Source of the DNA: an uncultured Acidobacteriota bacterium
GTDB lineage: Bacteria > Acidobacteriota > Thermoanaerobaculia > UBA5066
Assembly: GCA_963779415.1 (NCBI GenBank)
Contig: CAVZYA010000002.1
Coordinates: forward strand, 384,001 to 448,000
Direction: 5' to 3'
DNA: 64,000 nucleotides
Positions 23,142-34,237 of this stretch are shown in pieces. The notes under the pieces are model-generated. The model was not told where the DNA came from. It ran no database searches and saw only the letters and a list, made by a program, of their open reading frames with translations. A program made the translations under genes and the position numbers. Positions within the stretch are counted from its first letter, which is position 1, and each line of letters starts with the position of its first letter.

Positions 23142-24053
23142 TCACCAGCCGCGAGTCTGGAGCAGATCCGATTCCGCGAGCTTCGCCGCCTCGATCCCCC
23201 TCATCCCTTCGCCGAGCGCTTCCGAAGCCTTCGCCACGCGGTCCCAGTCCGTGAAGTGCGTCGTCGCCTCGACAATCGCGCGCGCCCTCCTGGCCGGATC
23301 GTCGGACTTGAAGATCCCCGAGCCGACGAAGACGGCCTCTGCACCGAGCATCCGGCAGAGGGCGGCGTCCGCCGGCGTCGCGATGCCGCCCGCCGCGAAG
23401 TTCGGCACCGGGAGCCGGCCATGTTCGGCGACGTAGACGACGAGCTCGAACGGGGCCTGGAGGTTCTTCGCCGCCGTCATCCACTCGTCCTTCGAGAGAA
23501 GAGTCAACGCCTTCATCTGCCGTGTCACCTCGCGCAGGTGCTTCACGGCGTGGACGATGTCCCCCGTCCCGGCCTCCCCCTTCGTCCGGATCATGGCGGC
23601 CCCCTCGCCGATCCGCCGGAGCGCCTCGCCGAGGTTCCGGCAGCCGCAGACGAACGGGACCTTGAAATCGTGCTTGTAGACGTGGTTCTCCTCGTCGGCC
23701 GGCGTCAGGACCTCCGACTCGTCGATGAAATCGACCTCGAGTGCCTCGAGGATGCGGGCCTCGGCGAGGTGCCCGATCCGGCACTTCGCCATGACCGGGA
23801 TGGAAACGGCCTTCTCGATCTCGCGGATCTTCGAGACGGGGGACATCCGCGCCACGCCCCCGTCGCGCCGGATGTCGGCCGGGACCCGCTCGAGAGCCAT
23901 GACGGCCACGGCTCCCGCGTCCTCGGCGACCTTCGCCTGCTCGGCGTTGACGACGTCCATGATGACTCCCCCCTTGAGCATCTCGGCGAGACCGACCTTC
24001 AGGCGGAAGGCGTCGGAGACGAAAGGGGTCCGGATCTCGAAACTGCTGGCCAT
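23142..24053 (-). CDS. pdxS: PLP synthase lyase subunit
   Basis: [55 protein letters not shown]. Confidence 0.97.
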
Positions 24054-24081
24054 GGCCGTTCTCTCCTTGATCCTGCTCTTT

Positions 24082-25575
24082 TCAGACGCCGATGAGCGCC
24101 GCTTCTTCGTCGATGCGCTGTCCGGCGGCCTTCCGGCGCGTGGCCTGCCGGGCGAGGGCCCGCGCCGCGGCCCCGACGGCCGAGAGGCCCCGTGCGAGGT
24201 CGGCGGGTTCCTCGCGGGCCACGGTGACACGGACTGCCGGAACGTCCGCGAGGTCGGGGTGAAAATCGGAGCCGGCCGAGACGAGGACTCCCCTGTCGCG
24301 CGCGGCCTCGGCGAGCGCGCGCCCGGAGACTCCGGCCGGCAATTCGATCCAGAGGACCCAGCCTCCGGAGGGGCGCGCACAGCGCGTGCCGGCGGGGAAC
24401 CGTTCCCGGATGACGCGGTGGGCGAGAGCGAGCCGCCCCTTCAGACGCGCGCGCGTCCGGGCGAGGTGCCGGTCGTAGTCTCCGCGCGCGAGGAAGAGGT
24501 TGAGCGCCGCCTGGAGGACGAGAGGCGACGTCAGCTCGCCGACCCGCTTGAGCGCGGCGAGCCGGTGGACGAACTCCCTCGGGCCCGAGATCCACCCGAC
24601 GCGCACCCCCGGGAAGAGCGCCTTCGAGAGCGTCCCGAGGTGGACGACGTGCTCCGGCGCGAGCGCGGCGAGCGGGGGCGGCAGCTCCCCCTCGACACGG
24701 AGATCGGCGTCGAAGGCGTCCTCCACGACGAGGACCCCCGCCGCCGCAATCCGTCCGGCGACATCCGCGCGGCGAGCGGGAGAGGCGAGAAGCCCCGTCG
24801 GATTGTGGAAATCGGGAATCGTGTAGAAGAATTTCGGCCGCTCGGCGAGGGCGCGGGAGAGCGCTTCCGGCTCGGGTCCTTCGGCATCGAGCGGGACTCC
24901 GAGAAGCCGCGCCCGGTGCACCCGGAGGAGCGTCAGAGCGAGCGCGTAGCTCGGCACCTCGACGGCGACCGGATCGCCCGGGTCGACGAGGGCACGCGTG
25001 ATCAGGTCGAGCCCCTGCTGGGCGCCGTTCACGATCAGGAGTCCCTCCGGATCCGCCGGGATCCCCCGCCGCCGGAGACGCTCGGCGAGCGTCTCGCGGA
25101 GCGGGCGATAGCCGAACGGGGAGCCGTACGCGAGGAGGGCACCGTCGCGCGCGACCTCGGCGAGGAGCTTCGCGAAGGCGTCCGCCGGGAAGTCCTTCTC
25201 GTCCGGGGCGAGGCGGGAGAGATCGAGGGCGCCCTCCGGAGCCGCGTCCGCCGCCGGCCGCTCGGCGAGGACGCGCGCAAGGAGCGACGAGGCGAGCCGG
25301 TCCCACGCGGGAGCCGGCTCCGGACGGGGTGCGGCCACCGAGCGAGGCACGATGCGCGTCCCGCCCCCGTGGTTCGTCTCGATCCATCCTTCGCTCTTGA
25401 GGAGCTGCAGGGCCTGATGGACCGTCGCCCGGTTCACCTCGAACGAACGGGCGAGATCCCGCGAGGCCGGAAGACGTTCCCCTTCCACGTACCGGCTTTT
25501 CCGGATGTCGCGGATCAGGTTGTCCGCGATGGTTCGGTAGAGCGGGACCCGCGGAGAGGGGGCGGAGGCATCCAT
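24082..25575 (-). CDS. pdxR: MocR/GabR family regulator (GntR HTH + PLP aminotransferase-like domain), PdxR-like
   Basis: [36 protein letters not shown]; immediately upstream of pdxST. Confidence 0.8.
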
Positions 25576-25591
25576 CGGTTCAAAGTTAGCC

Positions 25592-25607
25592 TTTGGCCTA
25601 GACCAAA
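25592..25607. promoter_or_regulatory. Palindromic operator candidate upstream of pdxR
   Basis: TTTGGCCTAGACCAAA (7 of 8 pairs), just upstream of a -10-like TAACTT (25583-25588, minus strand). Confidence 0.5.
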
Positions 25608-25663
25608 ATCAACCCGGTACGGAATCGGGGCCAACCAAGCCCGGAACGGGACCGGCCGGGCGC

Positions 25664-25948
25664 TCAGCCGCCGCGCGCCGCGAGGGCGGCGTAGGCGCGC
25701 TCCATCTCCTCGGCGAAAAACAGGTCCCACTCGCGCGACCCCTCGACGGGCTTCCGGGGCTTCGCAAGGAGCTTCGCGCGAACCTCCACCTCGAGCCGCG
25801 CGCTTTCGCGGTCCCACTCGAGGAGCGCCTTCAGGAGATGGTTTCGGACGAATTCCGTCTCGTGGGTCAGCTCGACCCCCGACATCCCGTGGAGGCGCTC
25901 CACCATCCGGTGGGAGAGATCCACCGCGCGCTCGCGCGACCGAGGCAT
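25664..25948 (-). CDS. DUF507 family protein
   Basis: 94 aa; EVRAKL..RKPVEGSREWDLFFAEEM pattern; ATG overlaps the upstream TGA. Confidence 0.75.
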   Translation of the reverse strand: MPRSRERAVDLSHRMVERLHGMSGVELTHETEFVRNHLLKALLEWDRESARLEVEVRAKLLAKPRKPVEGSREWDLFFAEEMERAYAALAARGG

Positions 25949-26601
25949 CAGTGGATCCTCCGTGGGCCGTCGGCCAGGGGGGTCCGGAGGCTCGCGACCC
26001 CTTTCTGCGTCAGCGGGTGGTCGAAGAGCTTGTCGAGAACGGCGAACGGCAGGATGGCGACGTCGGCCCCCATCATGGCGGCGTCGAGGACATGGAGCGG
26101 GCTCTGGACCCCCTGAACGGCGATCTGGGTCTGGAGACCGTAGTTGTCGTAGACGCGGACGATCCCCTCGACGACGTCCATCCCGATCTGTCCCGCGTCG
26201 TCCAGCTCCCCGATCGCCGGGGAGACGTAGGCGCTTCCGGCACGCGCCGCGAGGAGGGCCTGCGCCGCGGTGAAGACGAGCCCCACGTCGGTCGCGATCT
26301 GGTCGTCGTTCAGGAGGCGGACGACGCGGAGCCCCTCGCGAGTCATCGGCACGCGGATGACGATCGCCTTGCCGAGCTTGTGTACCTCGCGGGCTTCCTT
26401 GTACATCGCCTTGGCGTCCCCGGCCGCGATCGTGGCGATGACCGGACCGTCCCCGACGGCCGCGACGTCGGCGAGGAGACGGCGGTACTCCTTCCCGGCG
26501 GCGAGCGCCGCGTCCGGCCGGACGAGCGCCCCGTCGAGAAGCCCCCATTCGCGGACGCGGCGGGCCTCGTCGGGGTCGCCGGTGTCGAGAAAGAATCGCA
26601 T
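25948..26601 (-). CDS. Transaldolase/fructose-6-P aldolase family homolog lacking catalytic residues
   Basis: FFLDT, VF.AAQALLAA.AG..YVSP and KLFDHPLT match TalC/FSA. The Schiff-base Lys position is Arg83 and TTNP is replaced by LVRP. Confidence 0.85.
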   Translation of the reverse strand: MRFFLDTGDPDEARRVREWGLLDGALVRPDAALAAGKEYRRLLADVAAVGDGPVIATIAAGDAKAMYKEAREVHKLGKAIVIRVPMTREGLRVVRLLNDDQIATDVGLVFTAAQALLAARAGSAYVSPAIGELDDAGQIGMDVVEGIVRVYDNYGLQTQIAVQGVQSPLHVLDAAMMGADVAILPFAVLDKLFDHPLTQKGVASLRTPLADGPRRIH

Positions 26602-26622
26602 CGTCCCTCCGGAGGGCGAACT

Positions 26623-29220
26623 CTACCCGTTTTCGCCCGCGCCGGCCGGCTCCGCGGCCGGTTCGGTGGTCGTGTCGTCGTCGCGCTCGACGAGCGTCGC
26701 GACGGCCACGACGCGATCCCCCTCGTCGAGGTCGATCAGCTTGACCCCCTGCGCGGCACGCCCCGTCTCGCGGACGTCGCTCGTCGCGATCCGGATCAGG
26801 ATCCCCTTCTCGGTGATCAGGAGGAGCTGGTCGGCGTCCGTCACCGATTTGATCCCGACGACGGCCCCGTTCTTCTCCGTCACCTTCACGTTGATGACGC
26901 CCGTACCGCCGCGCCCCTGCTGCCGGTACTCGGCCACGTCCGTCCGCTTCCCGTAACCCCGCTCCGTCACCGCGAGGAGCGTCGACGACTCCTCGACGAG
27001 GTCCATCTCGACGACGACGTCCCCCCCCCGGAGTTCGATCCCCTTGACTCCCGTCGTGTCGCGCCCCGTCGGCCGCACGTCCGTCTCGGAGAACTTGATT
27101 CCCATCCCGTCGCGGGTCCCGAGGAAGACGAGGCGGCTGCCGTCGGTGATCCCCGCCGAGAGGAGCTCGTCCCCCTCCTCGAGGTTGATCGCGATGATCC
27201 CGGACGCGCGCGGGTTCCCGTAGGCCGAAAGGAGCGTCTTCTTCACGAGCCCGTTCTTCGTCGCGAAGAGGATGAAGCGGTCCTCCGGGAAGGTCCGCGT
27301 CGTCGCGAGCGCCGCGACGCGCTCCCCCTCGCCGAGCTGGATCAGGTTCACGAGCGCCTTCCCCCGCGCCGCGGGGCCGAGGGAGGGGAGGTCGTACGAC
27401 TTCACCCAGTGGACGCGCCCCCGGTTCGTGAAGACGAGGAGGTAGTCGTGGGTCGAGGCGACGAAGAGCTGCTCGACGACGTCCTCTTCCTTCGTGGCCG
27501 CGCCCGTTCGCCCCTTCCCGCCCCGGCGCTGCGCCCGGTAGAGGGAGAGCGGCGAGCGTTTCGCGTAGCCGCCGCGGGTGACCGTGAGGACGACCTCTTC
27601 CTCGGCGATGAGGTCCTCCATCTCGAGAGAGCCCTCCGCCGCGGCGATCTCCGTCCTTCGCGGGTTTCCGAAGCGCTCCCGGAGGGAGGTCAGCTCGGCC
27701 TTCAGGATCGCGGTGACGCGCTCTGGCCGGCCGAGGATGTCGCGAAGGTCCGCGATCTGGGCGAGGACCTCCCGGTACTCCGCGACGATCTTGTCTCGCT
27801 CCAGCCCGGTCAGGCGCTGGAGGCGCATCTCGAGGATCGCCTGCGCCTGCACGGCGTCGAGCTTCAGGAAGCCCTCCTCGAGGCGCGCAGTGCCGGTCAG
27901 GTCGAGGGAGTCGACGCCGAGGAACCGCTCGAGCGCCCCCTTCTCGAAGGCGACCTCCGTCGTGAGCCGCTCCTTCGCCTCGCCCGGATCCTTCGAGGCG
28001 CGGATGATGGCGATGACCCGGTCGAGGTCCGCGAGGGCGAGGGCGAGGCCCAGGAGAAGATGCGCCCGCTCCTCGGCCTTTTTCAGGTCGAACTTCGTCC
28101 GCCGCACCACGACCTGCCGGCGGTGATCGAGGAAGTGCCGGAGCAGGTCCTTCAGCGGGAGGACCCGGGGCTGTCCGTCGACGATCGCGAGGAAGATAAC
28201 GCCGAAGGACGACTGGAGCGGTGTCAGGGCGAAGAGCTGGTTCAGGACGACCTGTGAGACGACGTCCCGCTTCAGGTCGACGACGATCCGCATCCCCTCC
28301 CGGTCCGATTCGTCCCGGATCGCGGAGATTCCCTCGATCCGCTTGTCGTTGACGAGCTCGGCGATCTGCTCGATGAGCCGCGCCTTGTTCACCTGGAACG
28401 GGATCTCGGAAACGACGATCGACTCCTTGTCCCCCTTCTTCGCCTTCTCGATCTCCGCGCGCCCCCGGACCTGGAGGATCCCGCGGCCGGTCCGGTAGGC
28501 GTCCGCGATTCCCTGCCGGCCGAGGATGACGCCCCCCGTCGGAAAGTCGGGACCGGGGAGGACGCGGAAGAGCTCGGCGAGCGGCGCCTGCGGGTCCTCG
28601 AGAAGGAGGATCGCCGCGTCGCACGCCTCCGCGAGGTTGTGCGGCGGGATCTTCGTCGCCATGCCGACCGCGATCCCCTCGGCCCCGTTCACGAGGAGGT
28701 TCGGGAAGGCCGCGGGAAGCACCGTCGGCTCCTCGAGGGAGACGTCGTAGTTGGGCGTCCAGTCGACGGTCTCCTTGTCGATGTCGTCGCCGAGCATCTC
28801 CTCGGCGAGGCGGGTCAGCCGGACCTCGGTGTAGCGCATCGCGGCCGCGGCGTCGCCGTCCACGGAGCCGAAGTTTCCCTGGCCGTCCACGAGGATCTCC
28901 CTCATGGAGAAGGCCTGCGCCATCCGGACCATCGTGTCGTAGATCGCGGCGTCGCCGTGGGGGTGGTACTTCCCCATGACGTCGCCGACGATGCGGGCCG
29001 ACTTCTTGTAGGGCCGCCCCGCCCGGTTCCCCTGCTCCCACATCCCGAAGAGGACGCGGCGGTGGACGGGCTTCAGGCCGTCGCGGACGTCGGGGAGCGC
29101 GCGCCCCACGATGACGGACATCGCGTAGTCGAGGTAGCTCCGCCGGATCTCCTCCTCGATGGAGACCGGGATCCGCTCGCCCGGCTCGACCGGCGGCGGC
29201 TTTTCGGGCTCGTCGCTCAC
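26623..29220 (-). CDS. gyrA: DNA gyrase subunit A
   Basis: [29 protein letters not shown], GyrA-box QRRGGKG. Confidence 0.98.
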
Positions 29221-29221
29221 G

Positions 29222-32865
<3,644 letters not shown>

Positions 32866-32874
32866 GAACGACCG

Positions 32875-34002
32875 CTACATCCTCATCGGCATCACGACAT
32901 AAAGGTAGTTCCGGATGCCGGCGAGTGGCTCGCCGGGGCGGCCCTGACATTGCGCCTGTTCGTCTTTTACGTAGAGATGGACGTCCTTCGTCTCGGCCAC
33001 CTCCAGAAACTGCTCGAGGTAGCGTGCGTTCAGCCGGAGCGACAGCGGCTCGTGCTCGAACACGATCGGCAGCTCCTGGCTCCCGTCGCCGACGTCCTGG
33101 CTCTCCGACGAGATGACGAGCTGTCCCGATCCGAACGCGAGGCTCACGGCCTTCGTCCGCTCTCCGGAAAGGAGCGCGATCCGTCGGACGGCGCCGAGCA
33201 GCTCCTCGCGAGAGACGACGGCCTTCTTGTCGTTCTCCTTGCTGATCACCTTCTCGTAGTCGGGAAAGCGCCGCTCATCCAGCTTCGCGTAGAGGCGGCG
33301 CGGGCCGATCGAGAAGCCGAGGTGATTCGTCCCGCGGACGAGAGAGACCGGGGTGTCGTCCGCGGCGTCGAGCTTGCCGAGTTCGTCGAGGATCTTTTTC
33401 GAGACGAGGACCGGCTCGAAGCCGGCCTCCACCTTCACGCCATCGATCTCCACGAGCGCCAGACGATGGCCGTCCGTCGCCACCATCTCCGCCGTTCCGG
33501 CTGCCTTCGCCTTCAGCAGCGCCCCTTGCAGCTGCAGGCGCATTTCCTCGGTCGATACGGCAAACCGGATCTTCTCCACCATCCGTCGCAGCGCGCCGAA
33601 CGTCAGCGTCAGTGTCGGGCCGCCCCCCGCTTCCGGCCGGGTCGGATAGTCGGTCGCCGGCAGGCCGTTCAGCCGGATCCGGATCTTCGGCTCCTTGCAC
33701 GAGAGGACGACATGGTGGTTTTCCAGAACCTTGATTCCCAGCTCCGCAGAGGTCGGCAGGTCCCGGACCACGTCATAAAGGCGTCGTGCGGGGACCGTGA
33801 CCGCTCCGCCCGTTTTCACCGTGACCGGCTGGATCTCCGACACGAACGTCGTGTCGAGGTCCGTCGCGGTGAGCGTCAGCCTGGCGTCCCGCGCTTCCAG
33901 GAGGACGTTGCCGAGAATCTGATGGGTCGTTCGCCGCTCCACGACCCCTTGCAGGAGGCCGAGTTCACGCGAGAAATTGGCTGCCGAAACGTACAGCTCC
34001 AC
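32875..34002 (-). CDS. dnaN: DNA polymerase III beta clamp
   Basis: ATDLD, VATDGHRL, FPDYEKVI, VVMPMR; AAGGAG RBS before GTG 34002. Confidence 0.96.
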   Translation of the reverse strand: MELYVSAANFSRELGLLQGVVERRTTHQILGNVLLEARDARLTLTATDLDTTFVSEIQPVTVKTGGAVTVPARRLYDVVRDLPTSAELGIKVLENHHVVLSCKEPKIRIRLNGLPATDYPTRPEAGGGPTLTLTFGALRRMVEKIRFAVSTEEMRLQLQGALLKAKAAGTAEMVATDGHRLALVEIDGVKVEAGFEPVLVSKKILDELGKLDAADDTPVSLVRGTNHLGFSIGPRRLYAKLDERRFPDYEKVISKENDKKAVVSREELLGAVRRIALLSGERTKAVSLAFGSGQLVISSESQDVGDGSQELPIVFEHEPLSLRLNARYLEQFLEVAETKDVHLYVKDEQAQCQGRPGEPLAGIRNYLYVVMPMRM

Positions 34003-34237
34003 AACGGCTCCTTTACGATTCAAATATTAGCATTAGAAGAGCTTAGAACCGAAGAAGTAGTCGTAGGAGGGGGTAGAATGTGAACTTCAACGTAAATGAT
34101 TAACACAGAATTATTTAAACACACAGAATGGGTGTGTATGACGGGCATGTGTTCCTGTGAAGAAAGCAGAGAGTCTTCCGGCCGGAAGAGAGGATTCCAG
34201 AGACTGGTGAAAATCGGTGGAGAACGCCGTGAAAATC
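34003..34237. other. Replication origin oriC (dnaA-dnaN intergenic region)
   Basis: The only strongly AT-rich stretch in the window. DnaA-trio-like AAG AAG TAG TCG TAG GAG at 34052-34069; degenerate DnaA boxes at 34115-34123, 34133-34141, 34156-34164 and 34216-34224. Dominant gene orientation flips in this region. Confidence 0.8.

Follow-up and report, generated by a model that had tools for sequence, protein, structure and literature searches.

A transaldolase homolog without the Schiff-base lysine is conserved between gyrA and a half-size DUF507 gene in Thermoanaerobaculia

The window analyzed here is a stretch of 64,000 nucleotides from an uncultured Acidobacteriota bacterium (assembly GCA_963779415.1, contig CAVZYA010000002.1, positions 384,001 to 448,000), whose placement in the class Thermoanaerobaculia follows source names. 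Directly downstream of gyrA, it contains a gene for a transaldolase (Tal)-like protein, which has the length and the predicted fold of the short TalC transaldolases and fructose-6-phosphate aldolases (FSA), but which lacks the Schiff-base lysine and further catalytic residues. The gene is under purifying selection, its position between gyrA and a half-size DUF507 gene is conserved, and the genome encodes a second, intact Tal. The Tal-like protein is probably a pseudoenzyme, which is derived from TalC and is held by selection for a role other than transaldolase catalysis.

Loss of the transaldolase active site

The Tal-like gene and the codons on which the following comparison is based are located as follows:

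25948-26601, minus strand: Tal-like coding sequence, 217 amino acids, TalC/FSA-type (beta/alpha)8 barrel without the Schiff-base Lys (PF00923, 103.5 bits)
26518-26520, minus strand: codon 28, CGG (Arg), in place of the Asn of TTNP
26353-26355, minus strand: codon 83, CGC (Arg), aligned with the Schiff-base Lys, three base changes away from AAA or AAG
26287-26289, minus strand: codon 105, GAC (Asp), in place of the invariant Asn of N-x-T
25951-25968, minus strand: C-terminal tail G-P-R-R-I-H, residues 212-217, a conserved family-specific motif in a low-confidence, probably flexible tail

The Tal-like protein aligns without gaps to TalC of Thermotoga maritima (PDB entry 1VPX) over residues 1-203 (40% identity, E 3e-54), and the scaffold motifs FLDT, QALLAA.AG and KLFDHPLT are retained. 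Compared with 1VPX, GVTTNP is replaced by GALVRP, the catalytic Glu by T57, VIKIP by VIRVP (R83), NVTL by DVGL (N to D105), SPFVGR by SPAIGE (R to E132) and ASIR by QGVQ. The signature D-TTNP-E-K-N-T-S-F-R-A-S-R is that of most full-length members among the 150 best of approximately 4,175 TalC-like representatives, which were obtained by searching 1.84 billion proteins. A reading of the locus made from the sequence alone had described the coordinates and frame of the open reading frame (ORF), the 21-nucleotide spacer to gyrA, the TGATG overlap with the DUF507 gene and the gapless alignment to TalC/FSA-type enzymes; all of these were right, and every substitution it listed could be reproduced against 1VPX. 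Its argument that Arg83 cannot be explained by a single-base error is likewise borne out, both by the distance of CGC from the Lys codons and by the presence of R83 in all 121 sequences described below.

The catalytic roles of these positions are presumably those known from work on TalB, TacTal and FSA; the titles of PDB entries ('variant Lys86Ala', 'E60Q/F132Y ... Schiff base') agree with these roles for K86, E60 and F132 only. On this basis, the Schiff-base Lys of strand 4 (K86 of TacTal) is replaced by Arg83, and the acid/base residue of strand 3, which is Glu in Tal and Gln in FSA, is replaced by Thr57; Asp6 is present. The substrate-binding motifs TTNP and N-x-T read LVRP and DVG, and the phosphate site, built from the Arg of SPFxGR and the Ser and Arg of ASxR, is occupied by Glu132, Gly164 and Gln166. 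Where Tal enzymes have the Glu and the Phe, FSA has Gln and Tyr; the Tal-like protein carries Thr57 and Ala129 there and is therefore not FSA-like either. Across 117 full-length family members and the predicted structure, no family-invariant Lys is found at the catalytic (C-terminal) end of any strand; the invariant Lys residues K68, K75 and K78 (and K64, conserved to 98%) are located in helix 63-74 and in the loop preceding strand 80-85. Schiff-base transaldolase or aldolase chemistry should thus be beyond the reach of this protein.

Membership of the transaldolase family is clear from PF00923 (103.5 bits compared to a gathering score of 27), whereas the protein does not reach the cut-off of the fsa/talC equivalog model TIGR00875 (199.3 compared to 245.95 bits). 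The sequence-only reading had expected automatic pipelines to mislabel the gene as fsa or tal; this is partly right, as sources do call its relatives 'transaldolase', 'transaldolase family protein' or 'fructose-6-phosphate aldolase', but the protein itself scores below the equivalog cut-off. Clear homology to an enzyme family combined with the loss of essential catalytic residues, as found here, is characteristic of a pseudoenzyme.

Fixation, purifying selection and predicted fold

At least 120 homologs with 63-95% identity were retrieved, and the counts given here refer to the best 120 matches of one protein search plus the query. The clade proposed by the sequence-only reading, in which Arg occupies the site of the catalytic Lys, exists: all 121 sequences carry R83 and D105, and so do all 35 species-representative loci of Acidobacteriota that were retrieved through DUF507. 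Other sites are nearly fixed (S127 in 120, Q166 in 113, D6 in 112 and R28 in 109 of the 121 sequences), and position 57 is variable (T in 81, A in 25, P in 6, S in 5 and V in 4). Over 20 loci of the window's family, Arg83 is encoded by CGC (15), CGG (3), AGA (1) and AGG (1).

Within the genus, the ratio of nonsynonymous to synonymous substitutions (dN/dS; Nei-Gojobori, 15 pairs) of the Tal-like gene is 0.05-0.14, in line with the earlier prediction of a dN/dS below 1. The last 300 codons of gyrA give a matching range of 0.07-0.16, and the DUF507 gene a higher one of 0.11-0.22. The family-wide medians for the Tal-like gene, gyrA and DUF507 are 0.25, 0.26 and 0.46, respectively, with synonymous sites near saturation. 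The reading frame is intact in all 33 extracted copies (207-218 codons), which stem from the window's family (f1) and two further families of the same order (f2 and f3). Sequencing error and recent decay are ruled out by the fixation of R83, the use of synonymous Arg83 codons and the low dN/dS; the earlier view of a selected pseudoenzyme rather than a decaying gene is thus sustained, and purifying selection and long-term retention, which are likewise expected of a pseudoenzyme, are both seen. Relative to the C-terminal domain of gyrA, divergence amounts to 0.72 for canonical TalC, 1.11 for f1, 1.66 for f2 and 1.89 for f3, and because of these ratios the degenerate forms are considered somewhat relaxed, yet they are clearly constrained.

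One genome that is 65% complete (G002, loci L018 and L065) was excluded from the dN/dS and tree sets on account of frameshifts. In this genome, the Tal-like gene, gyrA and the gene for a long Tal are all found in shifted pieces, which looks like assembly or indel error and not like pseudogenization.

AlphaFold2 predicts the structure of the Tal-like protein with high confidence (predicted local distance difference test (pLDDT) 93.6, predicted template modeling score (pTM) 0.87), and only the last ~15 residues are uncertain. In a Foldseek comparison, the predicted barrel matches 1VPX with a TM-score of 0.92 and a root-mean-square deviation of 1.1 Å, so that the (beta/alpha)8 barrel of the short Tal enzymes is retained in the predicted structure. 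A C-terminal helix, which might serve pentamer/decamer assembly, is predicted for residues 196-206.

Pocket, surface and C-terminal tail

The comparison of conservation between the 117 full-length family members and 38 canonical representatives reveals two types of changes. Positions 26, 27, 57, 132 and a few neighbors have been released to vary, and position 129 is also counted among the free pocket positions. Other positions have switched to a new fixed residue (N28 to R, K83 to R, N105 to D, S111 to T and R166 to Q). The pocket is thereby relined with Arg28, Arg83, Asp105, Gln163 and Gln166, and Asp6 and Ser127 are retained; Arg83 and Asp105, which are located on neighboring strands, may form a structural salt bridge. 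Among the surface-type residues of helix 63-78 and other parts, K64, Y67, K68, R71, E72, K75, K78, R95, D142, R149 and D152-G155 are identical across f1-f3; these shared residues are only suggestive, as the comparison set is much deeper.

The C-terminal tail GPRR[I/V]H is new to the family. Among the 117 full-length members, G212, R214 and R215 are conserved to 100%, P213 to 99% and H217 to 91%, and the pLDDT of this block is 58. A GGAGGA sequence is located 7 nucleotides upstream of the DUF507 start within the Tal-like coding sequence, and the conserved PRR could be regarded as a mere imprint of the DUF507 ribosome-binding site (CGGAGG). This was rejected as the sole cause, because the tail is written in several codon sets (CGC CGC, AGG CGG and CGA AGG) and is kept where the DUF507 gene starts 130-230 nucleotides further downstream.

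Evolutionary origin within Thermoanaerobaculia

The order gyrA, Tal-like gene, DUF507 gene is found in 20 of 20 loci of the window's family and in all 35 species-representative loci, so that the conserved synteny which the sequence-only reading had suggested looking for is indeed present. In all 14 loci examined for the sister families (13 from f2 and f3, one from f1), the Tal-like gene is also located downstream of gyrA; the gap between both genes is 0.1-0.4 kb in f2 and f3, except for two loci with wider gaps of 1.2 and 2.1 kb. One of the loci analyzed, L066, is titled 'Acidithiobacillales bacterium', carries the full gyrA/Tal-like/DUF507 block with 87% identity to the window and probably derives from a mislabelled or contaminated bin.

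The three families differ in the residues that occupy the former active site. The signature of f1 is DLVRP-T-R-D-G-S-A-E and that of f2 is D-WLSA-E-R/Q-C-S/A-A-A-P-S-E-R. In f3, the signature is E-SVPP-E-K-N-S-S-F-R/S-E/D-S-R, in which the Lys, Glu and Asn are intact, TTNP and Asp6 are altered, and the phosphate Arg is retained in one genus; the f3 protein may therefore be an enzyme with an altered active site rather than a dead one. Two cysteines are also conserved in this clade: Cys105 is invariant in f2 (8 of 8; loci L028-L035), and Cys109 is present in both f2 and f3 (f3 loci L023-L026 and L036).

In the other orders of the class, the canonical signature is complete in each of the 11 short TalC genes examined, 10 of which directly follow gyrA. 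The gyrA-talC arrangement appears to be ancestral, because canonical talC follows gyrA in other orders, and the degenerate forms seem to descend from canonical talC. The sequence-only reading had suggested that the gene may be co-expressed with replication genes; as the linkage is inherited, such co-expression says nothing special about the form without catalytic residues.

In the phylogenetic tree, f1, f2 and f3 form one clade (Shimodaira-Hasegawa-like approximate likelihood ratio test (SH-aLRT) 99) with a long stem of 0.46; the stems of f1, f2 and f3 measure 0.49, 0.32 and 0.16, respectively, that of f3 being shorter. A careful tree joins f1 and f2 with support of 91/78, a node that is not starred, and the alternative grouping of f2 with f3 is not rejected (approximately unbiased test, p-AU 0.436). 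Retention of the Lys in close relatives had been named in advance as an observation that would point to recent decay. Such retention is found at the level of the order, namely in the sister family f3, but not within f1; the loss of the Lys in the window's family is therefore old and not recent.

A second transaldolase in the same genomes

A long, actinobacterial-type Tal is encoded in 40 of 41 genomes of the window's order; the genome in which it is missing is 51% complete, and four of the 40 finds are fragmentary (split at contig ends or by frameshifts). The sequence-only reading had suggested that a canonical Tal should be sought elsewhere in the genome, and such a protein is present: on contig 1 of the window's genome, a Tal of 381 amino acids is encoded, which matches PF00923 with 237 bits and passes both TIGR00876 (310.9 compared to 233.75) and NF002881 (432 compared to 367). 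In the alignment with Tal 3R5E of the Corynebacterium type (E 8e-78), its catalytic motifs TSNP, E, K, N.T and S.F..R are intact; it is likely the working transaldolase of the genome.

Among 28 sampled genomes with a short TalC from outside the order, 25 have no other PF00923 match, and three, all from one genus, have both forms. This pattern fits a loss of catalysis after the long Tal had covered the function, and the long Tal may have replaced the gyrA-linked enzyme.

Many genomes of the class sample, from f5 and some further families, encode the long Tal within open frames of ~930-1,250 amino acids. The long Tal of the window's genome scores 437 bits on a 949-position model of a bifunctional transaldolase/phosphoglucose isomerase (PGI), which is below the cut-off; Tal-PGI fusions seem to be common in a sister family.

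The DUF507 neighbor

The protein encoded downstream of the Tal-like gene has 94 amino acids and matches PF04368 with 38.1 bits (gathering score 24.7), covering only profile positions 95-174 of 182. It corresponds to residues 97-171 of the DUF507 structure from Aquifex (8T8K, profile comparison, E 3.3e-8). All 39 genomes of the order with a Tal-like gene have a match to this C-terminal half directly behind it; if the unpublished genomes G025 and G030 are set aside, the count is 37 of 37. In the window's family, the stop and start codons overlap as TGATG in 7 of 20 loci, the gap is at most 25 nucleotides in 15 of 20 and 130-230 nucleotides in 5 of 20.

Two half-size DUF507 genes are present in 35 of 41 genomes of the order (E <= 0.001), and three more C-terminal halves are found at E <= 0.01. 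In the window's genome, the N-terminal half is encoded on contig 1 (L060:6056-6334, minus strand; 92 amino acids, profile positions 1-92), 15 nucleotides upstream of an mmdA-like (methylmalonyl-CoA-type) carboxyltransferase gene (L060:4482-6041), which is followed by a biotin carboxylase gene (L060:2906-4405). The same order of DUF507-N, carboxyltransferase and biotin carboxylase is found in 6 of 7 other genomes checked, which belong to f1, f2 and f3. The two halves of DUF507 are thus encoded by separate genes, each of which has a fixed locus of its own.

Within the class sample, DUF507 is present in f1, f2, f3 and 15 of 18 f5 genomes, in the latter as a single gene unlinked to Tal. It was not found in the other families sampled, including all families with a canonical gyrA-linked TalC (0 of 5 in one check), and at three DUF507 loci that carry the label Deltaproteobacteria, the vicinity contains no Tal gene and no gyrA. 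The pairing of the Tal-like gene with DUF507 is specific to the window's order, including the Lys-keeping family f3. Since DUF507 also follows the f3 copy with Lys83, Glu57 and Asn105, the pairing is independent of the loss of the Lys. Complex prediction for the Tal-like protein and DUF507-C gave a score of 0.00 in both runs, which were made without controls and count neither for nor against an interaction.

Possible roles of the Tal-like protein

The history that we favor would begin with an ancestor of the class Thermoanaerobaculia in which a working talC directly followed gyrA. In the window's order, a long actinobacterial-type Tal would also have been present and able to cover the pentose-phosphate reaction. 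The gyrA-linked copy may first have lost the TTNP substrate motif, a loss that is common to all three families of the order, and the window's family may then have lost the Lys, the Glu and the phosphate-binding Arg, Ser and Arg. Part of the pocket would have been re-fixed with new polar residues and other pocket positions would have been freed, and the GPRR[I/V]H tail would have arisen. The most likely mode of action is that of a non-catalytic barrel, probably still oligomeric like TalC and produced jointly with the half-size DUF507 protein of the adjoining downstream gene. The relined pocket, the conserved surface and the tail of the barrel, alone or in combination, may serve to bind either another protein or a small ligand of anionic or polar character. 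The overall interpretation of the sequence-only reading is thus partly supported: the selected pseudoenzyme stands, whereas its proposals of a scaffold, a sensor or a partner of an active transaldolase are speculative.

Several observations weigh against this view. The presumed inactivity of the protein is deduced from residues whose catalytic roles are taken from other enzymes. Seven pocket positions are conserved as polar residues to at least 78%, which fits a repurposed enzyme as well. The f3 proteins keep the Lys, Glu and Asn (and the phosphate Arg in one genus) with the same synteny and under similar constraint; the selected function may therefore not require the loss of catalysis, and the f3 protein may still be an enzyme. 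The trees are compatible with one or two losses of the Lys and with more than one order of events. In addition, the replacement by the long Tal is one phylogenetic event, as related genomes are not independent, and the three genomes of another family in which a canonical short TalC coexists with a long Tal imply that the co-occurrence of both forms does not force decay.

It is possible, although we lean against it, that the barrel is an obligate partner of DUF507, so that a complex of the barrel and DUF507-C, possibly together with DUF507-N, is the functional unit. This would agree with the adjacency of both genes in all 39 genomes of the order and all 35 species-representative loci, with the short gaps and TGATG overlaps in f1 and with the restriction of DUF507 to f1, f2, f3 and f5, none of which is a family with a canonical gyrA-linked TalC. 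However, the co-occurrence represents a single evolutionary event, the genes are 130-230 nucleotides apart in a quarter of the f1 loci, DUF507 evolves faster than its neighbor (family-wide median dN/dS 0.46 compared to 0.25), DUF507 genes without a linked Tal are found in f5 and in the three 'Deltaproteobacteria' loci, and adjacency alone is a weak sign of binding.

Less likely than a pseudoenzyme, and in our view improbable, is an enzyme repurposed for a different reaction without a Schiff base, for instance acid/base chemistry on a non-phosphorylated or carboxylated substrate, which would use the relined pocket of Asp6, Arg28, Arg83, Asp105, Ser127, Gln163 and Gln166. Several former active-site positions are fixed to new polar residues (R28, R83, D105 and Q166, next to S127 and D6) and do not drift, the gene is under strong constraint, and the protein P0178 of an unrelated lineage pairs R83 with D105, while keeping TTNP and the phosphate site. 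On the other hand, f2 differs at the same places (R/Q83, C105, A127, P132 and E164), and there is therefore no common new catalytic set across the clade; R83 and D105 may simply form the salt bridge mentioned above, and the neighboring genes suggest no substrate.

A more far-reaching proposal, which we regard as quite unlikely, is that the barrel acts as a ligand-sensing or scaffold subunit of a module with the split DUF507 and couples a central-carbon signal to two loci. The gene for the C-terminal half would be locked to that of the barrel, where the gyrase operon ends, and the gene for the N-terminal half to an acyl-CoA carboxylase/decarboxylase operon, and a reassembled DUF507 heterodimer together with the barrel would link both loci. 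If this were true, a function could be assigned to DUF507 for the first time, and the barrel would be the first regulator derived from a transaldolase.

A moonlighting role of the barrel, in which it would modulate GyrA or a further protein encoded by the dnaN-recF-gyrB-gyrA cluster, is very improbable. The position after gyrA is conserved throughout the class, and metabolic enzymes acting on gyrase are known, such as the glutamate racemase MurI; however, a fully canonical TalC holds the same position in other orders, so that the gyrA linkage is explained by inheritance, and in f2 and f3 the Tal-like gene is separated from gyrA by the gaps of 0.1 to 2.1 kb given above. Finally, a functionless relic, that is a decaying talC surviving only through the gyrA transcription unit and translational coupling to a needed downstream gene, would fit the faster evolution relative to gyrA (1.11-1.89 compared to 0.72) and the different catalytic positions of the three families, but is largely refuted by the intact frames, by a dN/dS equal to that of the gyrA C-terminal domain and by the many invariant positions in 117 full-length homologs, and coupling would constrain only the last few codons, whereas the gene is intact where DUF507 lies 130-230 nucleotides away.

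Relation to known proteins and significance

The closest characterized relatives are the short TalC or subfamily-4 transaldolases (T. maritima TM0295, 1VPX; Thermoplasma acidophilum, 3S0C; B. subtilis, 3R8R), which have the same length and fold and share FLDT, QALLAA.AG and HPLT. Unlike these, the Tal-like protein lacks the Schiff-base Lys, the Glu, the Asn of TTNP, the Asn and Thr of N-x-T, the Phe and Arg of SPFxGR and the Ser and Arg of ASxR, scores below the TIGR00875 cut-off and carries the added GPRR[I/V]H tail. E. coli FSA (1L6W) belongs to the same barrel family (E 3.7e-20), but keeps the Lys, and the long Tal of the same genome shares PF00923 and is canonical, but its relationship to the short form is distant.

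Six more proteins of the 150 best representatives have no Lys at the aligned position: P0178 (R83 and D105, otherwise canonical), P0221 (Armatimonadota by its source name), P0252 (Alicyclobacillus by its source name, Asn83), P0163, P0179 and P0210. These proteins lie on separate long branches, and the f1 signature is found in none of them. The nucleophile seems to have been lost more than once in the short-Tal family, because Lys-less homologs occur in unrelated lineages. In the open-access literature searched, no description of a bacterial transaldolase pseudoenzyme and no paper on transaldolase in Thermoanaerobaculia were found, and a search for paralogs with a replaced Schiff-base Lys returned nothing relevant among the matches listed.

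The DUF507 protein of Aquifex (AaDUF507; 8T8K and 8T8L) is described as a pseudo-symmetric, Y-shaped helical fold of unknown function, and short DUF507 proteins were proposed to dimerize via an intermolecular four-helix bundle (PMC10439177). The text of that article mentions neither transaldolase nor gyrase, operons or gene neighbors (PMC10439177). The gene downstream of the Tal-like gene corresponds to residues 97-171 of AaDUF507; in the window's order, the DUF507 family is divided into an N-half and a C-half gene at separate loci.

The locus displays a trajectory that includes an ancestral working gene in a fixed slot, a second isozyme and three families at different stages of active-site loss, with a constraint that equals that on gyrA at all stages, and it provides a natural series for asking what the triosephosphate isomerase (TIM)-barrel scaffold of an aldolase serves once its chemistry is gone. 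The case may also give a handle on DUF507. In metabolic reconstructions of Thermoanaerobaculia, the gene should not be counted as a transaldolase or fructose-6-phosphate aldolase, despite the labels given by the sources.

The surrounding genes

The genes and sites that flank the Tal-like gene are the following:

25946-25950, minus strand: TGATG, in which the stop codon TGA of the Tal-like gene (25948-25950) overlaps the DUF507 start codon ATG (25946-25948)
25664-25948, minus strand: half-size DUF507 gene (PF04368), 94 amino acids, C-terminal half of full-length DUF507
26602-26622, minus strand: spacer of 21 nucleotides between gyrA and the Tal-like gene, with a GGAGGG ribosome-binding site 4 nucleotides before the ATG
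26623-29220, minus strand: gyrA, TAG stop codon at 26623-26625 (PF00521, 536 bits, plus six GyrA C-terminal repeats)
29222-32119, minus strand: gyrB (listed ORF; Pfam)
31696-32865, minus strand: recF (Pfam)
32875-34023, minus strand: dnaN (Pfam)

The Pfam matches agree with the dnaN-recF-gyrB-gyrA order on the minus strand given by the sequence-only reading. A simple consensus scan of positions 25300-26900, which is weak for a high-GC, non-model phylum, returned neither promoter-like (0) nor terminator-like (0) sites. A search of sequencing runs listed no RNA run for this sequence, and the best DNA run shares 0.28 of the sampled words.

The longest ORF of gyrB (965 amino acids) overlaps recF by ~420 nucleotides, and no Pfam domain covers the residues before 189; gyrB probably starts near 31690, and the listed start at 32119 is probably too far upstream. 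On the other side of the locus, 90 nucleotides past the DUF507 gene and on the minus strand, a regulator with a GntR-type helix-turn-helix domain and an aminotransferase fold (MocR/PdxR-type; 24082-25575) is encoded, followed by a PdxS (SOR_SNZ) gene (23142-24380). The listed ORFs of the regulator and PdxS overlap, and the PdxS start is probably located downstream of 24380.

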